64,000 nt of DNA, from contig JAPXOZ010000004.1 of NCBI GenBank assembly GCA_033811195.1, positions 36,625-100,624 of the forward strand, read 5' to 3'. The stretch is from Bacteroidales bacterium (GTDB lineage Bacteria; Bacteroidota; Bacteroidia; Bacteroidales; UBA932). The position numbers and the translations under genes are program-made. The notes beneath the pieces were generated by a model, which saw nothing but the letters and a program-made list of their open reading frames with translations, was not told where the DNA came from and did not search any database. Of this stretch, positions 274 through 59,530 are shown in pieces. Numbering within the stretch: position 1 is the first letter of the stretch; each line of letters begins with the position of its first letter.

Positions 274-307
274 AGTATTTATTTATAATTTGTAACAAAA
301 TGTTTTT

Positions 308-880
308 AGTTCTGAGTTTCGAGTTCCGAGTTTCGAGTTGTGCTCCGCACTCCATACTCCATACTCCACACTCAATACTCCACACTCATACTCCACACTC
401 AATACTCCATACTCCATACTCCATACTCCATACTCAATACTCAATACTCAATACTCCATACTCCATACTCCATACTCCATACTCCATACTCCATACTCCA
501 TACTCCATACTCCATACTCCATACTCAATACTCAATACTCAATACTCAATACTCATACTCCACACTCATACTCCACACTCAATACTCCATACTCCATACT
601 CCATACTCCACACTCAATACTCAATACTCAATACTCAATACTCAATACTATATACTCCACACTCATACTCCAAACTCATACTCCACACTCAATACTCAAT
701 ACTCAATACTCAATACTCCATACTCCACACTCCACACTCCAAACTCACCACTCCATACTACATACTCCACACTCCAAACTCCCCACTCCAAACTCCCCAC
801 TCCATACTACATACTCCCCACTCCCAACTCCCCACTCCAAACTACATACTCCCCACTCCAAACTCCCCACTCAGAACTCC
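308..880. repeat. Degenerate heptanucleotide tandem array: 5 GAGTT-polarity units (308-342) followed by about 78 ACTC-polarity units (343-880)
   Basis: Read directly: AGTTCTG AGTTTCG AGTTCCG AGTTTCG AGTTGTG, then CTCCGCA CTCCATA CTCCATA CTCCACA CTCAATA and so on. There are 10 consecutive CTCCATA units at 454-523. The 53-nt block 378-430 is repeated exactly at 558-610. The + strand has no G from 348 to 873. A 10-bp inverted repeat AGTTCTGAGT (308-317) / ACTCAGAACT (869-878) brackets the array. Confidence 0.95.
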
Positions 881-906
881 TCACTAAACCTCGCAACCCG
901 CACCAC

Positions 907-1683
907 TTATCCGCTTATACGGATCTTTATTCCCGCTTTCTTCAAAGGCTCAGCGGCCCGTTCCATCTCTTTTACTGAGACTTTCTCCAAAGTGGAAAGA
1001 GGAGGTTTCCGGTCAAGGGTGTAGAGCATAACTTCGCGCGGACGTAGTGACAGGACCATTTTCTGCCATCCCACCAGTAAGTCGCTCCTCATCGAATCCA
1101 CCTCCACACCGTTCACAACTCCACGCAAAAACATAGTCTGCAATATGAAATCACCCTCAAACCACTCCAGATTTGAAATCACTTCGCTGATGCTGTAATT
1201 GGGATTTTGGGGACGGTCAATAAGCGTGACATAATCCTTATTCACACCATCAAGCTTGAGAATCGGATTATCTACCTTACGCAGTGCCTCCTTTATTCCG
1301 GGTCTGCCTAGCATAGTTGCGTTTGAAAGCACAGAGATAACAGCTTTCGGAAAAAACTCATCCCTAAGAGCCACCGTATAATCTATGATTTCCGCAAAAT
1401 CGGGGTGTAGGGTAGGCTCGCCGTTGCCGGAAAATGTGATGGAATCTACAGGAATATTGTCGCGTTGGCACTCGTCCAATTTATTTCTTAGGGCCTCGAG
1501 TACCTGCTCCATCGTAGGAATCTTGCTATCTGAGCGTCCCTCTGAGTTCCATCCGCACTCGCAGTAAACACAGTCAAAGGAACAAATCTTGCCCTTGAGG
1601 GGCAGAAGATTTATCCCCAGCGAACTGCCAAGTCTTCTGCTTCTGATCGGACCAAAAACTATACTATCAAAATATATCGCCAT
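907..1683 (-). CDS. Radical SAM protein (specific function not assignable)
   Basis: 258-aa ORF with CSFDCVYC, a CxxxCxxC radical-SAM cluster motif, at about residue 34. Confidence 0.75.
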   Translation of the reverse strand: MAIYFDSIVFGPIRSRRLGSSLGINLLPLKGKICSFDCVYCECGWNSEGRSDSKIPTMEQVLEALRNKLDECQRDNIPVDSITFSGNGEPTLHPDFAEIIDYTVALRDEFFPKAVISVLSNATMLGRPGIKEALRKVDNPILKLDGVNKDYVTLIDRPQNPNYSISEVISNLEWFEGDFILQTMFLRGVVNGVEVDSMRSDLLVGWQKMVLSLRPREVMLYTLDRKPPLSTLEKVSVKEMERAAEPLKKAGIKIRISG

Positions 1684-3567: not shown

Positions 3568-4848
3568 ATGAATGTCCTTGTATTGGGTTCGGGTGGAAGG
3601 GAAAGTGCTTTAGCCTGGAAATTATCCGGCAGTCCTCTTGCAGAGCATCTTTACTGTATGCCAGGCAACCCTGGCACCGCCACTTTCGCGACAAATGTGA
3701 ATTGCGGTCTCTCCGATTTTGAATCTATTGCACAACATATTTCCGATCTTTCGGTTGATATGCTCGTCGTAGGTCCTGAAAATCCTCTTGTTGAGGGTAT
3801 TACCGATTTTCTTCAAGATAGAATGCCTTCACTTATGGTTATAGGTCCCAGCCGTGATGGAGCAAGGCTTGAAGGCAGTAAGGATTTTGCTAAGGCTTTT
3901 ATGACAAGGTACTCCATTCCTACTGCTGCATACAGGACTTTCGAGAGTTCCCAGTTTGAAGATGCTTATGCTTTCCTGGAGCAGCTCAAGCCTCCTTATG
4001 TTCTCAAGGCAGATGGTCTTGCCGCCGGCAAGGGAGTGATCATCAGTCATTCTATAGAAGAGGCCCGTCAGGAACTTGCCTCGATGTTCGAAGGCCGTTT
4101 CGGAGAAGCCGGTGCTAAAGTGGTAATAGAAGAGTTCCTTTCGGGTATTGAACTCTCGGTTTTCGTGCTGACTGACGGCAGAGATTATCTGATGCTTCCC
4201 AACGCTAAAGACTATAAACGAATTGCCGAAGGTGATACCGGTCCCAATACCGGTGGTATGGGTTCGGTCTCTCCGGTGCCTTTTGCGGATGATCTCTTTA
4301 TGTCAAAAGTTGAAGAGCGTATAGTAAGACCTACTATACGCGGTATAGAAGCTGAGGGCATGAATTACTGCGGTTTCATATTTATAGGTTTGATGAATTG
4401 TGGCGGTGACCCTTATGTAATAGAATACAATGTCCGTATGGGAGACCCTGAGTGTGAATCGGTCGTAAGGCGCATTGATAGTGACCTTCTGGGACATCTT
4501 ATAGCTGCCGCCAAGGGTAATCTCTCTTCGGAGAAGATAATTGTCTCGCCTATGAGTTCGGTTACAGTAATGGCAGTTTCCGGAGGTTACCCGGGCAGTT
4601 ACGGCAAAGGATTTCCGATTTCAGGACTTGATGTAGACTCGAAAGAAGATGATATTGTTCTGTTTCATGCCGGTACTGCTGTTTCAGGAGCTGAAGTGGT
4701 GACATCAGGTGGCAGAGTGCTGGCAGTAACATCCCTGGCAAAATCCCTGGCTGAGGCGCGAGAAGCCTCCTACAGAAGACTTGCAGACATTTCATTTGAA
4801 GGTATATTTTACCGTAGCGATATAGGTAGCGACTTGTTGAATTTCTGA
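3568..4848 (+). CDS. purD: Phosphoribosylamine--glycine ligase
   Basis: The ORF 3544..4848 starts at a TTG. The in-frame ATG at 3568 gives the canonical PurD N-terminus MNVLVLGSGGRESALAWKL, followed by the ATP-grasp body and GG(R)VL near the C-terminus. Confidence 0.9.
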   Translation: MNVLVLGSGGRESALAWKLSGSPLAEHLYCMPGNPGTATFATNVNCGLSDFESIAQHISDLSVDMLVVGPENPLVEGITDFLQDRMPSLMVIGPSRDGARLEGSKDFAKAFMTRYSIPTAAYRTFESSQFEDAYAFLEQLKPPYVLKADGLAAGKGVIISHSIEEARQELASMFEGRFGEAGAKVVIEEFLSGIELSVFVLTDGRDYLMLPNAKDYKRIAEGDTGPNTGGMGSVSPVPFADDLFMSKVEERIVRPTIRGIEAEGMNYCGFIFIGLMNCGGDPYVIEYNVRMGDPECESVVRRIDSDLLGHLIAAAKGNLSSEKIIVSPMSSVTVMAVSGGYPGSYGKGFPISGLDVDSKEDDIVLFHAGTAVSGAEVVTSGGRVLAVTSLAKSLAEAREASYRRLADISFEGIFYRSDIGSDLLNF

Positions 4849-4863
4849 TAAGGATAGGGTGGA

Positions 4864-5850
4864 GTGAGTACATCAAAGATAAACGGAAGGACGATAGCAC
4901 TACTTGTTTTAGCGGTGGTGCTATATGTGAGCGCTTTTTTTATTGCTCCGGAACCTATGGATTATGATACAGTGCTGCCTTTTGGAAGTCCGAGGTTTCT
5001 TGACACGATATTCGGAGCGACCACTCTATCCTATATTCTGTCGATAGTTTTTATGATAGTTACCGCAGCCAGTATCTATTACTTCAATTTGATGTTCACC
5101 TCCGGTATCAACTATTTGCTACCGGTATTGTATATATTTCTTGTGGTATACAATCCAAGGGTGATCTTTTTCTCACCGCTTCATATCGTAGCGCTTCTGT
5201 TGCTTTGGTCACTCGTCTTTTCCGCTCGATACCGCAACTCCGTTCAAAATTTGAGCAATAACTTTGTTTCGTTTTTCCTATTTGGCACTGCCTCGTTATT
5301 CTTCCCCCAGCTGGTCTGGATTTTTCCTCTAATCATACTTGTCAATCTTAGGGCTTCCGAGGAGAAGTTAAAGTATATTTTTACCTCATTCCTCGGGGTA
5401 CTCACTCCACTTGTAATGGCTGGTGCAATATGCTATATATTTGGTGGAAATCAGTTTCTGAATGGAGTAATAGCCTCTTTCTGGGTTTCAATGAGTACTC
5501 TTGGCAGATATACTTTTAATTTTTCTGCTGTAGAAATTGCAGCTGCACTTTTTATGATCATTTTTGCTTTGATTTCAACCTTTTATGTGCTGCGCAATCT
5601 CAATCGTTACAAGATTATTCACTCAAATACTTCTATCCGCATCATCTTTTTTGCGATACTGATTTCACTTATTTGTGCGGTTTTTATTACGGACATCCGT
5701 GATCCGTATGGTGTGATGCTTTATGTGCCGGTTTCGCTGATTCTTTTTGAGTATCTCTCTTCCTCTAAAAACAACAAGGGGGCCACTATATTTTGTATAG
5801 TAGTATCCGGCCTTGCAATAATCTCAAGAATTATAGTTTTCGTTCGTTAG
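4864..5850 (+). CDS. Integral membrane protein of unknown function
   Basis: 328-aa ORF (GTG start), hydrophobic throughout with roughly 8-9 predicted transmembrane segments. I recognise no catalytic motif. Confidence 0.55.
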   Translation: MSTSKINGRTIALLVLAVVLYVSAFFIAPEPMDYDTVLPFGSPRFLDTIFGATTLSYILSIVFMIVTAASIYYFNLMFTSGINYLLPVLYIFLVVYNPRVIFFSPLHIVALLLLWSLVFSARYRNSVQNLSNNFVSFFLFGTASLFFPQLVWIFPLIILVNLRASEEKLKYIFTSFLGVLTPLVMAGAICYIFGGNQFLNGVIASFWVSMSTLGRYTFNFSAVEIAAALFMIIFALISTFYVLRNLNRYKIIHSNTSIRIIFFAILISLICAVFITDIRDPYGVMLYVPVSLILFEYLSSSKNNKGATIFCIVVSGLAIISRIIVFVR

Positions 5851-12529: not shown

Positions 12530-12554
12530 AAAGGGTTCGGATTTCGAACCCTTT
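12530..12554 (+). terminator. Hairpin terminator after mutB
   Basis: AAAGGGTTCG (12530-12539), loop GATTT, CGAACCCTTT (12545-12554): a perfect 10-bp stem 6 nt after the mutB stop. Confidence 0.6.
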
Positions 12555-12561
12555 AATATTT

Positions 12562-12596
12562 AGTTCTGAGTTCTAAGTTCTGAGTATTGAGTTCCG
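12562..12596. repeat. Five GAGT-polarity heptads (AGTTCTG AGTTCTA AGTTCTG AGTATTG AGTTCCG)
   Basis: Read directly. Same unit family and the same AGTTCTGAGT decamer as at 308-317 and 56222-56231. Sits between the two terminator hairpins of convergent mutB and rpsU. Confidence 0.85.
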
Positions 12597-12598
12597 AA

Positions 12599-12631
12599 TA
12601 AAAAAGAAGCTCCCTTCGAAAAGGGAGCTTC
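12599..12631 (-). terminator. Rho-independent terminator of rpsU
   Basis: GAAGCTCCCTT (12606-12616), loop CGAA, AAGGGAGCTTC (12621-12631): an 11-bp stem followed on the minus strand by a T-run (complement of AAAAAA at about 12599-12605). Confidence 0.7.
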
Positions 12632-12678
12632 CAGCTATGAAAACGGTTTATATATGATTTTTTTGCAAAAATCCGAAG

Positions 12679-12870
12679 TTATTCGTCGAGTTGTTGCATC
12701 TTCTGAACATAGATAGCCTTTTGCTTTTGGGCTCTCCTTTTTACAGAAGGTTTCTCAAAGGTCTTACGTTTCCTGAGTTCGCGCAAAGTACCCGTCCTTT
12801 CAAATTTGCGTTTGAATTTCTTTAATGCTCGTTCAATATTTTCACCTTCTTTAACCGGTACGATAATCAT
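12679..12870 (-). CDS. rpsU: 30S ribosomal protein S21
   Basis: 63-aa basic protein MIIVPVKEGENIERALKKFKRKFERTG..., the canonical bS21 sequence pattern. Confidence 0.95.
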   Translation of the reverse strand: MIIVPVKEGENIERALKKFKRKFERTGTLRELRKRKTFEKPSVKRRAQKQKAIYVQKMQQLDE

Positions 12871-50103: not shown

Positions 50104-50341
50104 GAGGATTAAGGGCTACCTCTACATGGATTAATCTCTTCATATGTTGGGTGCCATTAAGCGCAGCGATGGCTGCAGCACCTTCTTCATCATTCATCTC
50201 CACAAATCCGTAGCCTCTGGAACGTTTTGTTTCGGGGTCAACTATGATGCGTGCGGATGTCACAGTACCATACTGTTCAAACAACTGTATCAGGTTTTCT
50301 CGCCTCGCTTTATAGCTGAGCCCATAGATAAAAATCATCAT
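50069..50341 (-). CDS. RRM-type RNA-binding protein
   Basis: 90 aa with RNP-2 IFIYGL and RNP-1 RGYGFVEM, then a basic tail. The last 35 nt overlap the 3' end of galM (convergent). Confidence 0.85.
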   Translation of the reverse strand: MMIFIYGLSYKARRENLIQLFEQYGTVTSARIIVDPETKRSRGYGFVEMNDEEGAAAIAALNGTQHMKRLIHVEVALNPPKKRSEKKNSE

Positions 50342-50391
50342 CGTTAATTATATCTTGGTAAGGTTGTTTCATGGTTAAGGGGGCAGTTACT

Positions 50392-55148: not shown

Positions 55149-56213
55149 ATGAAGATTCTTTGTCTCAATCCGGGATCTACTTCTACGAAGATTGCTGTTT
55201 TTGAAGATGGAAAACAAGTCTTTATAACCAATATCAAGCACTCTGCGGAAGCGATTGCAAAGTACAAATCGGTTATAGACCAGTATAAGTTTAGAGAGGA
55301 GATTATTCTCAAGACTCTTGCCGACAACGGCTTTGATAAATCGGAGTTCAGTGCCGTTGTGGGTCGAGGAGGCCTTCTCAAACCTATCCCTTCCGGCACA
55401 TACGAAGTGAATGAGGCACTGTTGGCCGATCTTCGTGGCTCAGTTGGCGGTGAGCATGCTTCCAATCTTGGCGGTATCCTTTCTGATTCGATTGCATCTG
55501 AGATCCCAGGCTGTCGCGCATTCATTTCCGACCCTGTAGTTGTGGACGAGCTTAGTGACCTGGCCAGGGTAGCCGGTCACCCTAAGTTCAAGCGTATCTC
55601 CATTTTTCACACTCTCAACCAGAAAGCTGTTGCCAAACATTATGCGAGCGAAATCGGAGTTTCTTATGACTCTCTCAATCTCATTGTTGCACATCTTGGT
55701 GGAGGCGTTTCAGTAGGAGCACACTATCAAGGAAAGGTAATTGATGTCAATAACGCTCTCAACGGAGAAGGACCTTTTTCACCCGAGCGCTCCGGTACTC
55801 TTCCTGCACAGCAGCTTGCAGATCTCTGCTTTTCCGGTAAATATACACCTGAAGAGGTCAATAAGATGATTTGCGGACAAGGCGGAGTAGTTGCCTATCT
55901 TGGTACGAATGATTTTTATGAGGTAGAACTCAAGATGGTAGATGATCCACATTTCAAGTTTATTGCCGATGCATTCCTTTACAATGTTGCCAAAGAGATA
56001 GGAGCAATGGCAGCTGTCCTTAAAGGCAAAGTGGATGCAATTTTGATTACAGGAGGTGTGGCAAAAGGCAAGGGAATGATGAAGGATTTGACAGAGTATA
56101 TAAAGTTTATCGCTCCCGTCAAAATATATCCCGGAGAGGATGAAATGGCCGCTCTGGCAATGAATGGCTTTGCCGTTCTGGAAGGTCGAGAAGAAGCGAA
56201 GGTTTATAGTTAG
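55149..56213 (+). CDS. buk: Butyrate kinase
   Basis: MKILCLNPGSTSTKIAVFE N-terminus; 354 aa; ASKHA-fold acyl kinase distinct from the AckA upstream. Confidence 0.85.
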   Translation: MKILCLNPGSTSTKIAVFEDGKQVFITNIKHSAEAIAKYKSVIDQYKFREEIILKTLADNGFDKSEFSAVVGRGGLLKPIPSGTYEVNEALLADLRGSVGGEHASNLGGILSDSIASEIPGCRAFISDPVVVDELSDLARVAGHPKFKRISIFHTLNQKAVAKHYASEIGVSYDSLNLIVAHLGGGVSVGAHYQGKVIDVNNALNGEGPFSPERSGTLPAQQLADLCFSGKYTPEEVNKMICGQGGVVAYLGTNDFYEVELKMVDDPHFKFIADAFLYNVAKEIGAMAAVLKGKVDAILITGGVAKGKGMMKDLTEYIKFIAPVKIYPGEDEMAALAMNGFAVLEGREEAKVYS

Positions 56214-56400
56214 GAGTTTAAAGTTCTGAGTTTAGAGTAATTTTGGAGTTTGGAGTTGTGTGGGGTAGGGTTGGTTTCGAGTTCTGAGTGGTGCAAGTTA
56301 CGGGTTACGAGGTGCGGGTTGGTTTCGAGTTACGTGGTGTTTGTCGTGAACTTGAGTTAGGGTTAAGCTCAGAACTGGCTTAAAGTTAAAAGTAGGCCAT
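56214..56400. repeat. Diverged GAGT-polarity heptad arm (left arm of the 56.2-56.8 kb repeat locus)
   Basis: GAGTTTA AAGTTCT GAGTTTA GAGTAAT ... read directly. 16-nt direct repeat GGGTTGGTTTCGAGTT at 56268-56283 and 56316-56331. GAGTTCTGAGTG (56279-56290) is the exact complement of the junction sequence of the downstream 14-mer array. Confidence 0.85.
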
Positions 56401-56417
56401 TTTTGGCTCTCTAAATG

Positions 56418-56458
56418 AAAAAAGGAGGATGATTTCAAAATCGTCCCCCTTCCTTTTT
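56418..56458. terminator. Possible bidirectional terminator hairpin (A-tract / imperfect stem / T-tract)
   Basis: AAAAAGGA (56419-56426) pairs perfectly with TCCTTTTT (56451-56458). The inner GGAGGATGA / TCGTCCCCC pairing is partial. Lies between the two repeat arms. Confidence 0.3.
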
Positions 56459-56487
56459 CTCTCAAAATTCCTCATTGCACCCTACCC

Positions 56488-56753
56488 ACTCCACACTCAG
56501 AACTCCACACTCAGAACTCCACACTCAGAACTCCACACTCAGAACTCCACACTCAGAACTCCACACTCAGAACTCCACACTCAGAACTCCACACTCAGAA
56601 CTCCACACTCAGAACTCCGCACTCAGAACTCCGCACTCAGAACTCCACACTCAGAACTCCACACTCAGAACTCCGCACTCAGAACTCCACACTCAGAACT
56701 CCACACTCAGAACTCCGCACTCAGAACTCCACACTCAGAACTCCACACTCAGA
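56488..56753. repeat. 19 tandem copies of the 14-mer ACTCCACACTCAGA (two heptads per unit)
   Basis: Counted unit by unit: 266 nt = 19 x 14. Fifteen copies are identical. Units 10, 11, 14 and 17 carry ACTCCGCACTCAGA. Confidence 0.97.
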
Positions 56754-56763
56754 ACTATTTTTT

Positions 56764-57780
56764 CTATCTTTTAATCAAGGTAGCTGCAATCTGATGTGCC
56801 ATCATAAGGAAGTCATCGGCAATAGCGGAATCAAATGTGATTACAACATTGAGTTGGATGTCGTCAACAATGATGGCTTTCTTGTAGATATAGCTATCAT
56901 CCTTGTGGCCGATGATGTAAAATTCATTTTCAGAGATGGTCGTATCGTCAAGGATATAGCCTATCTCTTTGAATCCTTCACATTTTTCCTCAAAATGCTC
57001 CTGTATGGTCTGATTGAACATCACAGTGCTGTTATAGCCGCCATAAGCATAGAATCTGGCAAGACCATTGTCCGAAATAAATAACTGTCCATCTCCATTT
57101 TCAGGCTCCCCTTGTCCGGTGAAATTGAAAGGATACCTGATGGTGAACCCGAAACGTTCATTGTAATAACATCTGTCCATAACCAGGTCAAGTTGGTCAA
57201 ATCCACCAAATCCGTCCCATTCAAGATGGCCGACTTTCTGATACTCTTCGCCTCTTACATAGACAGTGATGTCTTTGCCTTTCTGGGGCAATTCTATATA
57301 GTAGCGGGTAGCATCCGGTATGGAGGCTGCAAGTGCAGGAAGCGGTTTTAGAGTCTGCTCTTCAATGCGGTGTTCGTAAAACATCTTTAGTGCTTTCTCA
57401 TTTTCTCTAAGGACAACGCCCACTATCCGCCTGCCATCCGGCACTTTCCAGTAGCACATCTGGAGATTACCCTCCTGCTCACCGGAAATGCCCGCACGCA
57501 TATAGCCATTGCGTTTATCCATTAAAACATAGCCATTAGGGTCACTGGTGATATCTATTTCGTGGTAGACATTATATGCCACTTGCAATACATCGTTTGA
57601 AAATGCTTTGGAAATGACGTTAAAGTAGTACTCAATATCCGGAATGGACTGGTCGGGAAGGGTGATGACTTTCTCCTGCCAGATATTCTCAATCTGGGGG
57701 ACATTCATCCTGCCGGCAAAAACTGATCCTGAAATCAACAGCGCCGACAGTGTGTTGACTAGGATTATCAGTCGTTTCAT
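56764..57780 (-). CDS. Secreted hypothetical protein
   Basis: 338-aa ORF with a clear signal peptide (MKRLIILVNTLSALLISGSVFA). I see no recognisable motif. Confidence 0.55.
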   Translation of the reverse strand: MKRLIILVNTLSALLISGSVFAGRMNVPQIENIWQEKVITLPDQSIPDIEYYFNVISKAFSNDVLQVAYNVYHEIDITSDPNGYVLMDKRNGYMRAGISGEQEGNLQMCYWKVPDGRRIVGVVLRENEKALKMFYEHRIEEQTLKPLPALAASIPDATRYYIELPQKGKDITVYVRGEEYQKVGHLEWDGFGGFDQLDLVMDRCYYNERFGFTIRYPFNFTGQGEPENGDGQLFISDNGLARFYAYGGYNSTVMFNQTIQEHFEEKCEGFKEIGYILDDTTISENEFYIIGHKDDSYIYKKAIIVDDIQLNVVITFDSAIADDFLMMAHQIAATLIKR

Positions 57781-57914
57781 TGTATATGTGGTATTGGTTG
57801 TTAGTATTTATCACCAGCAATTGTTAGGAACAATATCAGTACTATCCGTTTCGCCGTCTTAGGGATCTACTCTAGATTCTCAAATATACAAAATATTTTT
57901 CAAATCTTAATGCT

Positions 57915-57922
57915 TATCTTTG
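57915..57922 (+). promoter_or_regulatory. Candidate -7 promoter box TATCTTTG for the MATE gene
   Basis: TAnnTTTG ending 2 nt before the first ATG (57924). This argues that translation starts at the next ATG (57951). Confidence 0.35.
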
Positions 57923-57950
57923 CATGGAAAAAACAATTTTTTATGTTTTT

Positions 57951-59357: not shown

Positions 59358-59450
59358 CAGGTAAGATAATTGATTGACAAAGATAAATGTATGAATAAAT
59401 AATTATAGACAAAAAGAATTATTATTTGGGTGTAAAATCAACATTTAGAT

Positions 59451-59527
59451 CCATAACCCATAACTAGCACCCTAACCCCAAACTAGTAACTTTTAACTCA
59501 ATACTACACACTACATACTCATAACTC
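59451..59527. repeat. Eleven degenerate ACTC-polarity heptads immediately upstream of a start codon
   Basis: CCATAAC CCATAAC TAGCACC CTAACCC CAAACTA GTAACTT TTAACTC AATACTA CACACTA CATACTC ATAACTC, ending 3 nt before the ATG at 59531. The last units are the same type as in array 308-880. Confidence 0.7.
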
Positions 59528-59530
59528 AAA

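Follow-up and report, generated by a model that had tools for sequence, protein, structure and literature searches.

A 19-copy array of paired heptads beside a two-way terminator in a Bacteroidales bacterium: a probable slippage product of a wider heptad family

A 64,000-nucleotide (nt) stretch of DNA from an uncultured Bacteroidales bacterium (contig JAPXOZ010000004.1, positions 36,625 to 100,624) carries 19 head-to-tail copies of a 14-nt unit in the spacer between two convergent genes, buk and a gene for a protein of 338 amino acids (aa). This whole stretch, at its full length, is called the window here, and all coordinates refer to it unless a relative is named. A 19-fold perfect repeat is not a chance product, and the array belongs to an already described class of heptanucleotide repeats. 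We consider it probable that the array is a slippage-generated tandem repeat of a genome-wide family of GAGTNNN heptads, lying in untranslated DNA that flanks a conserved two-way terminator. The layout of the locus is as follows.

55149–56213, plus strand: buk, the butyrate kinase gene, last of an ackA-ptb-buk cluster (open reading frame, Pfam Acetate_kinase match, orthologues in the relatives L001, L002 and L007).
56214–56400, plus strand: the left arm in the putative 3′ untranslated region (UTR) of buk, made of degenerate heptads that are rich in G and T and have GAGT polarity (composition, repeats).
56337–56417, plus strand: a conserved core, reaching from the left arm to the terminator (alignment of three lineages).
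56418–56458, no strand assigned: a two-way intrinsic terminator consisting of an A-tract, a 10-bp G+C-rich stem and a T-tract (folding, terminator scan, conservation).
56488–56756, minus strand: the array, 19 units of 14 nt (Tandem Repeats Finder, unit parse, composition, one copy at the orthologous site of L001).
56764–57780, minus strand: the 338-aa protein gene, with an N-terminal signal-like segment (open reading frame; converges on buk).

Tandem Repeats Finder reports a period-14 array at 56488–56756 with 19.2 copies, 97% matches and a score of 510. Parsed unit by unit, positions 56488–56753 are filled by 19 copies of ACTCCACACTCAGA on the plus strand, a count taken from one assembly. Fifteen of the copies read ACTCCACACTCAGA exactly, and the other four, units 10, 11, 14 and 17, read ACTCCGCACTCAGA, all bearing the identical A-to-G change; the parse thus agrees in every unit with the initial annotation, which was made from the sequence by a model. 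Each unit is made of two heptads, ACTCCAC and ACTCAGA, with an ACTC core common to both. The repeat class in question has units of 5–11 nt; the focal unit, at 14 nt, is longer but consists of two heptads, and the sister array at 343–880 has a period of 7. Uninterrupted head-to-tail copies run well beyond chance. A kinship with the 308–880 region had been proposed and is seen in the heptads themselves, since ACTCCAC occurs there many times and ACTCCCCACTCAGA is found at 862. On the plus strand, the array has a C content of 0.43 and a G content of 0.09 over 266 nt. Read in the sense of the 338-aa gene, that is, on the minus strand, it becomes (UCUGAGUGUGGAGU)n in the putative 3′ UTR of that gene. 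The array ends 7–10 nt from the stop codon at 56764–56766, close to the distance of about 10 nt given at first.

Written as a string of variants along the array, the units read AAAAAAAAAGGAAGAAGAA, which contains (GAA)x3. This indicates duplication of a 3-unit block of 42 bp. The near-identity of the units had also been ascribed to ongoing homogenisation, a process that is not needed here, as the variant string fits duplication of the 42-bp block.

The spacer between the two genes is 550 nt long in the window, 248 nt in L001 (the closest relative), 306 nt in L007 and L008, and 3 nt in L002 to L006. By alignment, the spacers of the window, L001 and L007 are orthologous, having the conserved core and the terminator in common. 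The flanking genes have 88% nucleotide identity to those of the window in L001 and 82–84% in L007 and L002. At the site of the 19 units, L001 carries a single ACTCCACACTCAGA with ACTCCATACTC after it. L007 and L008 have zero 14-mers, and at that site L007 has only diverged C/A-rich heptads. In this comparison between species, unit number at the orthologous site is therefore 19, 1 or 0. Because there is one 14-mer in L001 and none in L007 and L008, the expansion is specific to the lineage of the window, and the array is young, given that its units are near-identical. The recent expansion suggested in the initial annotation is borne out by these relatives: 19 is not a fixed number, and L002 to L006 are without the spacer altogether.

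Some further observations concern this spacer and its neighbours. In L002 (7017–7021), and also in L003 to L006, buk and the 338-aa gene lie 3 bp apart without terminator or repeats, so that the two transcripts necessarily overlap or stop within the gene opposite. In L007, (ATGAACA/ATGAATA)n follows a MatE gene at 497–544, and in L008, (TTGGCTA/TTAGCTA)n lies upstream of the 338-aa gene at about 760–830 on the reverse strand. The presence of these other heptad families in neighbouring spacers of L007 and L008 implies that the clade expands several kinds of 7-nt unit, beyond GAGTNNN.

The left arm begins directly at the buk stop codon, which abuts it, and its first 38 nt or so are identical in the window and L001. 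The segment from 56214 to 56417 (204 nt) has a G content of 0.34, a C content of 0.10 and a GC skew of +0.55. The arm had been described as diverged heptads of opposite polarity. The polarity is as described; the heptad periodicity is just partial, with a period of 7/14 at 56202–56257 and a 25-nt repeat in 3.2 copies at 56264–56339 (Tandem Repeats Finder). A 69-nt insertion built from this 25-nt repeat is specific to the window and is missing in L001 and L007. Two smaller features pointed out earlier were found exactly where they had been placed. The 16-nt direct repeat GGGTTGGTTTCGAGTT occupies 56268–56283 and 56316–56331, and the 12-mer GAGTTCTGAGTG at 56279–56290 is the exact reverse complement of CACTCAGAACTC, which occurs at each unit junction of the array. 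An additional observation is a TAATTTTG box at 56238–45 that resembles the −7 promoter element of Bacteroidetes; it is present in L001 too.

Between the arms, the A-tract, hairpin and T-tract at 56418–56458 (AAAAAAGGAGGATGATTTCAAAATCGTCCCCCTTCCTTTTTCT) fold on both strands, with −15.6 kcal/mol on the plus strand and −19.4 kcal/mol on the minus strand, and the hairpin is also detected by a terminator scan. The sequence has what a two-way intrinsic terminator should have, a stem-loop with an A-tract upstream and a T-tract downstream when read on either strand. The terminator is kept in L001, with a perfect 10-bp stem, and in L007 and L008; relative to L001, the stem in the window has one A.C mismatch and one G.U pair. 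The core that precedes it is better conserved over the three lineages than are the arms. At relaxed thresholds, Rfam gives a match to GibS (RF04182) at 56337–56457 on the plus strand, along with noise from snoRNA and miRNA families. With 27.1 bits against a gathering threshold of 115 (E = 0.07–0.17), this match falls short of a GibS/FopS-type Bacteroides small RNA, and at gathering thresholds Rfam has no match in the window. Three sequences only were available for the core and terminator region, and these gave no useful covariation. The core may be a 3′-UTR element, a small RNA or a 3′-UTR-derived RNA.

The two arms keep opposite G/C bias in three lineages, in line with the initial view of arms of opposite polarity round a terminator. 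The GC skew of the left arm is +0.55 in the window, +0.42 in L001 and +0.41 in L007, and that of the right arm is −0.68, −0.73 and −0.57, respectively. The coding-region skew is merely +0.05 to +0.09.

A phased scan of the window for GAGT/ACTC cores gave three further sites: the array at 343–880 with its companion at 308–342, a short run at 12557–12594, and the start of the left arm. The first of these constitutes a second locus, with the following parts.

343–880, minus strand: the sister array, with about 76 heptads that read GAGUNNN in the direction of a radical-SAM gene (Tandem Repeats Finder, core scan).
308–342, minus strand: a short arm of opposite polarity, ACUC in minus-strand RNA, some 25 nt ahead of the start codon of the following gene.

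The sister array starts 27 nt past the stop of the radical-SAM gene (907–1683, minus strand). It had been suggested that the focal locus repeats the architecture of 308–880. A short arm and an expanded arm of opposite polarity are indeed common to both; the likeness extends to a part of the architecture only, because 308–880 is without the central terminator hairpin. The orthologous spacer between the radical-SAM gene and the D-Tyr-tRNA deacylase gene can be followed through several relatives. These carry the label MAG (metagenome-assembled genome): Bacteroidales bacterium, and part of their contigs stem from samples labelled anaerobic digester metagenomes. In L139 to L142, it holds about three heptads (TAGTGGG/TAGTATG) and a strong hairpin terminator, and it is identical in the four samples. 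In L133, L135 and L138, there are about six heptads and a hairpin; in L132, about 20 copies of TAGTATG without a hairpin; and in the window, 76 heptads without a hairpin. All relatives keep the place of the array and a sense polarity rich in G and T at this locus. The unit number, and even the unit core, change fast. Short arrays there are stable within species. As a separate observation, the hairpin terminator accompanies three to six heptads and is missing in both expanded lineages (window 283–907 and L132 4777–4934; compare L133 4777–4901 and L139 2277–2397). The expanded array seems to have taken the hairpin's place. It was also observed that the end of the (TAGTATG)n run in L132, at about 4870–4905, reads GGGTAGTGGGTAGTGGGTAGTGGGTAAT, four GGG tracts separated by 4-nt loops, which on the sense strand make up a canonical G-quadruplex motif.

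Read in the direction of the gene before it, each focal arm is rich in G and poor in C. The initial annotation had placed GAGU-polarity heptads in both 3′ UTRs, which are predicted as such from the positions of the genes and the terminator, and this placement fits a wider orientation pattern. The sample comprised at least 120 loci matching (ACTCNNN)x5 + ACTC, with one genome per species. The loci listed are mostly from cyanobacteria, Bacteroidota, Chloroflexota and Planctomycetota; they were selected via the ACTC pattern, they do not include the genome of the window, and the events are not phylogenetically independent. The counts below are among the matches listed.

In convergent spacers, 17 of 17 arrays are nearer to the gene whose mRNA would read GAGU. 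When open reading frames are taken from stop to stop, arrays at most 15 nt from a stop favour GAGU over ACUC by 40:5. For the period-7, -14 and -21 arrays from Tandem Repeats Finder that lie at most 20 nt after a stop, G exceeds C in the sense direction by 53:8 for ACTC-core units and by 39:8 for units outside the search pattern. With the gene's stop strictly upstream and the array 0–20 nt after it, the ratio is 52:14 (p = 2.8e-6). The control, repeat-free 60-nt 3′ flanks from the same loci, gave 125:126 for G>C versus G<C, so a general G>C bias of 3′ flanks is rejected. A need for stop codons in all frames, another candidate cause, proved a weaker predictor (26:13 versus 52:14). The excess of G over C holds where stop content is uninformative (23:7) and wins in four of four conflicts. 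Arrays at most 30 nt upstream of a long open reading frame's first ATG have G<C by 24:3, a result that start calling favours, and an opposite bias ahead of start codons is suggestive only.

By phylum, the ratio is 22:6 in cyanobacteria and 9:5, not significant, in Bacteroidota. The two-arm architecture recurs in L012 and L036, both from Nostoc, and in L043 from Chroococcales, and a Rikenellaceae genome (L121) has a stop-abutting (GAGTTAA/G)x19 array. Taken together, the counts suggest that orientation is under selection in heptad arrays just after stop codons. The pattern may be new with respect to the known literature on heptamer repeats; genome-wide support is needed, particularly within Bacteroidota. 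A cause in Rho only is unlikely as a general explanation, because cyanobacteria show the pattern and are not known to have Rho.

The folding of the predicted transcripts depends on which strand is read. Array RNA of ACUC polarity (plus strand) has a minimum free energy of 0 kcal/mol over 133 nt, that is, it is fully unstructured, and the read-through RNA of the left arm is as unstructured as that of the array. The GAGU-polarity RNA folds weakly, and its centroid structure is unpaired. The fold of the whole region was compared with whole-sequence shuffles (z = −3.35 on the plus strand and −3.72 on the minus strand) and with arm-wise shuffles (z = −3.1 and −2.7); the shuffled arms still reach −132 of −150 kcal/mol. 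Folding of both strands had been proposed earlier on the expectation of arm-to-arm pairing, and such pairing is possible and better than in shuffles, with z about −3. In these models, a transcript through the entire region would possibly form a long imperfect arm-to-arm hairpin. The pairing would come mostly from complementary composition and would be relevant to read-through transcripts alone. A purely compositional origin was considered and is mostly adequate (−132 of −150 kcal/mol), yet a residual z of about −3 is left. A stretch of at least about 80 nt of C-rich, G-poor, unstructured and untranslated RNA, as in a rut site, is found in the read-through (antisense) RNA only. The sense RNA of the array is not a CsrB/RsmZ-type sponge, whose many GGA motifs sit in hairpin loops: it has one GGA per unit (19 in total), no stable hairpins and no Rfam match. 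A passage in PMC13370968 states that Bacteroides lack CsrA.

We propose the following course of events for the focal array. As the comparison with the relatives shows, about one 14-nt seed has grown to 19 copies in this lineage, the variant units indicating steps of 14 nt and 42 nt, and the left arm has gained its 69-nt repeat block. Growth would be driven by replication slippage or by unequal exchange between identical units, an enzymology that we infer, and it would be tolerated thanks to the position of the array, past both stop codons and ahead of the terminator. Copy number would probably be near-neutral. Orientation is probably constrained so that the sense RNA stays G/U-rich and C-poor, a pattern that the counts show and whose cause we infer. 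The direct effect would be an extra 250 nt or so of G/U-rich, C-poor 3′ UTR on the mRNA of the 338-aa gene. As a side effect, a transcript escaping the terminator in either direction would be C-rich, G-poor and unstructured, resembling a Rho-loading site. Pairing of such a transcript with the arm on the other side is a further possibility.

Several points weigh against this account. Unit-number differences are known between species only, not within species. The relatives are short-read assemblies, which could in principle collapse arrays; collapse is argued against by the L001 contig, which runs through one unit into different flanking heptads. The orientation pattern and the conserved skew are signs of constraint, and near-neutral may understate the function of the array. 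The orientation pattern is itself mostly cyanobacterial among the matches listed (22:6, against 9:5 and no significance in Bacteroidota). Finally, the arms pair better than arm-wise shuffles do (z about −3), which a purely neutral origin does not predict.

Could the arms act as an insulator against read-through? They would then guard the convergent genes from antisense transcription, either by loading Rho or by forming a giant arm-to-arm hairpin. We regard this as unlikely, even though a number of observations fit it. The plus-strand array RNA, with 43% C, 9% G and three pyrimidine-C dimers per 14 nt, would have a free energy of 0 kcal/mol over 133 nt, and the left-arm read-through RNA is predicted to be equally unstructured. 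The opposite skew of the arms is kept in three lineages despite their diverged sequences, and the arm-to-arm hairpin of the full read-through RNA stands out from arm-wise shuffles (z = −3.1 and −2.7). The terminator in the window may also leak more than that of L001, because of the A.C mismatch and the G.U pair in its stem. However, L002 to L006 manage with the genes 3 bp apart and with neither terminator nor arms, and the one unit of L001 indicates that 19 are not required. The orientation pattern is found also in cyanobacteria (22:6), which are not known to have Rho, and convergent spacers show no enrichment of ACTC-core arrays (17 out of 90 that were classified), both counts being among the matches listed. 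No rho gene was found within the 64-kb window.

It is tempting to see in the sense RNA a platform for an RRM-type protein, with unit number tuning the fate of the mRNA or titrating the protein, but we hold this to be rather improbable. The sense RNA is G/U/A-rich, C-poor and weakly structured, as such a platform might be. A small gene at about 50104–50352 (minus strand) shows, by eye, the RRM-type RNP motifs IFIYGL and RGYGFVEM in its translation, and its L002 orthologue carries a PF00076 annotation, which bears on the platform reading. The heptad arrays listed are mostly from cyanobacteria and Bacteroidota, and RRM proteins are present in both, cyanobacteria included; this co-occurrence is anecdotal and holds among the matches listed. 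RbpB of B. thetaiotaomicron prefers a G/U/A motif in vitro and has 3′-UTR peaks: the purified protein binds a threefold G/U/A motif, GUAGGAUA, with a dissociation constant (KD) of 5.1 uM and leaves a threefold C/U-rich motif unbound (bioRxiv 10.1101/2021.04.27.441718), and it targets single-stranded regions, with 26 peaks in 3′ UTRs (PMC11697453). On the other hand, RbpB has no defined short motif in vivo (PMC11697453). Unit sequences differ widely among loci and species, which disfavours one specific recognition site, and copy number differs among close relatives, between 0 and 19, while nothing points to compensation.

An assembly artefact, in which the array or its length was made or mis-sized by the assembler, has a small probability in our estimate. 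The closest relatives are labelled as Bacteroidales metagenome-assembled genomes, the first nine array units are identical over 126 nt and would be unbridgeable by short-read k-mers, and look-ups with identical proteins found no second assembly of this species. In these look-ups, the contig index contained no identical buk or 338-aa proteins from other strains; a radical-SAM protein with 100% identity occurs in the protein collection and is missing from that index. Against this, an ordered variant pattern with unique flanks is untypical of collapsed or chimeric repeats, L001 has the seed unit at the same site, and the window has arrays of the family at three more sites, as do relatives that were assembled independently at sites of their own.

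Promoter repeats of 7 bp control the HMW adhesins of Haemophilus influenzae, and the initial annotation had entertained a contingency reading for the focal array as well, in which unit number would switch or grade the expression of a neighbouring gene. The near-perfect units would be highly slippage-prone, and the protein encoded next to them is restricted to the lineage and probably secreted. The location of the array speaks against this reading, which we consider highly improbable. A phase-variable contingency repeat sits in a coding region or at promoter elements, whereas this one sits between the stop codon at 56764–56766 and the terminator at 56418–56458, 3′ of both stop codons and outside any promoter, where it can shift neither a frame nor promoter spacing. 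The promoter region of the 338-aa gene (57781–57923) has no repeats, and there is no known switching mechanism for a 14-nt unit in a 3′ UTR.

The nineteen regularly spaced ACTC cores on one strand also recall DNA-level protein-binding arrays such as iterons or partition sites, the parH centromere of TP228 having ACTC tetramer boxes. We give this hardly any credence, as the array stands among housekeeping genes of the chromosome, none of those nearby serving replication or partition, repeats every 7 or 14 bp fall out of step with the helical turn of DNA, the arrays of the family track gene orientation instead of marking one centromere-like site, and unit number is not conserved among relatives.

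Two other origins were considered and rejected. The likelihood of a coding repeat is negligible: the open reading frames of 121 and 195 aa through the two arrays match no Pfam family above threshold, and the array is missing in relatives that keep both flanking genes. It is observed, all the same, that long stop-free open reading frames cross both arrays (56429–56794 and 300–1024, both plus strand) because the C/A-rich strand is without stop codons; annotation might miscall repeat proteins there. An origin in a phage or mobile element was rejected since a 21-mer probe of one and a half units gave 0 matches among viral contigs and no transposase or integrase was seen beside the arrays. The same probe gave only three matches in 241 million metagenome records, and these were short and unrelated.

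The heptads ACTCAGA, ACTCCAC and AGTTCTG recur as short arrays in unrelated metagenome contigs (L129 409–468, L130 2855–2893 and L131 9210–9290). One of these contigs is high in G+C, and L131 has a GAGT arm opposite an ACTC arm. The heptads common to these contigs and the focal array reflect either convergence or some shared property of the unit.

The 338-aa protein has no Pfam match. Only three homologue clusters were found in 5.8 billion proteins, at 91%, 85% and 84% identity, and from this distribution and its signal-like N-terminus the protein is probably lineage-restricted and secreted. No tRNA or tmRNA genes were found in the window. Two smaller groups of heptads lie elsewhere in it, as follows.

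12557–12594, plus strand: five heptads of AGTTCTG type, between two hairpins, downstream of a methylmalonyl-CoA mutase gene and beside rpsU.
59440–59530, plus strand: C/A-rich degenerate heptads of ACTC polarity, running up to the ATG of a cytidylate-kinase-like gene (recognised by eye; G 0.03, C 0.31).

Around the first group (12531–12635), the first hairpin follows the methylmalonyl-CoA mutase gene, and the second, which has an A-tract before it, looks like the terminator of rpsU, the gene for ribosomal protein S21 on the minus strand (12679–12870). The heptads of the second group are of the xTAACTC / xCAACCC type and almost G-free. A similar C/A-rich heptad leader occurs on the reverse strands of L007 (about 340–400) and L002 (about 4330–4365), L002 being otherwise compact. 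The patch may be a conserved unstructured translation leader.

The array alone is of little weight, being a lineage-specific expansion in the non-coding DNA of an uncultured Bacteroidales bacterium. Its value is that the ancestral state (one unit by a conserved terminator) and the derived state (19 units) are both visible, and that the second locus shows four stages. If the orientation pattern were confirmed genome-wide, abundant and long-unexplained repeats would turn out to be filtered or used at the RNA level. A bolder proposal, to which we assign a low probability, is that heptad arrays are cross-phylum, strand-polar elements of untranslated regions, G/U-rich after stops and C/A-rich before starts, and are kept by RNA-level selection. 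If so, selection could act via binding of single-stranded RNA by RRM-type proteins, or by making transcription harmless when it runs outward and terminable when it runs inward. Through slippage, every gene would come to have a number of sites that is heritable and can be tuned, and the 19 units would be a recently raised setting on the 338-aa mRNA.

Under the slippage account that we favour, the closest known relatives of the array are the long simple sequence repeats with 5–11 nt units described in prokaryotes by Mrazek, Guo and Shah (2007), among which heptanucleotide units are the commonest, according to the summary in PMC4679880. As summarised there, such repeats lie for the most part between genes and are found in non-pathogens; polymerase slippage, with a general tendency to expand, is held responsible for them, not a specific function. 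To the extent of that summary, the focal array is like them in consisting of head-to-tail short units and differs in that its unit is a 14-nt pair of heptads and the array is one arm of a mirror-image pair round a terminator. The secondary sources consulted here, PMC4679880 among them, make no mention of orientation relative to stop codons.

Heptamer arrays are known from Beggiatoaceae, cyanobacteria and some Bacteroidetes, and their function is described as largely unknown (PMC4679880; bioRxiv 10.1101/2022.06.06.494920). The TAACTGA direct repeats (MacGregor 2015) are intergenic, have a strong gene-orientation preference and show indels in 7-nt steps between relatives (PMC4679880). They lie mostly 1–43 nt upstream of start codons, usually in two to six copies, with a proposed role in translation, and a TAACTGA array directly after a stop codon has the reverse orientation (PMC4679880). 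The focal array resembles them as an intergenic heptamer repeat with an orientation preference and 7-nt steps, found in Bacteroidetes and cyanobacteria. In contrast, it follows a stop codon, its unit is of GAACTCA type, and it has 19 copies of a 14-mer. The heptamer repeats of Nostoc have been studied near promoters and start codons, and their role has been called poorly worked out (bioRxiv 10.1101/2022.06.06.494920). Compared with these, the focal array belongs to another phylum and has other units. The likeness is that both are contiguous and that the repeats are abundant in intergenic DNA, with a GAGT arm, a spacer and an ACTC arm between convergent genes in L012, L036 and L043. Cyanobacterial short tandem arrays of heptamer type go by the name STRR.

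Rut sites are defined by function, and the likeness of the focal locus to them is compositional only. The read-through RNA of either arm would be C-rich, G-poor and unstructured far beyond 80 nt, whereas in the mRNAs of both genes the strand present is the other, G-rich one. The REP/BIME elements of enterobacteria offer another parallel. They are transcribed, lie at gene 3′ ends, are often arranged as inverted pairs that give stem-loops, and vary in copy number by strain. REP elements are imperfect palindromes of 35–40 nt spread by a dedicated transposase, whereas the focal array is made of tandem units of 7 or 14 nt that are not internally palindromic, and no transposase was seen to go with it. 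The likeness to REP/BIME is therefore an analogy, of position at gene 3′ ends and of possible effect.

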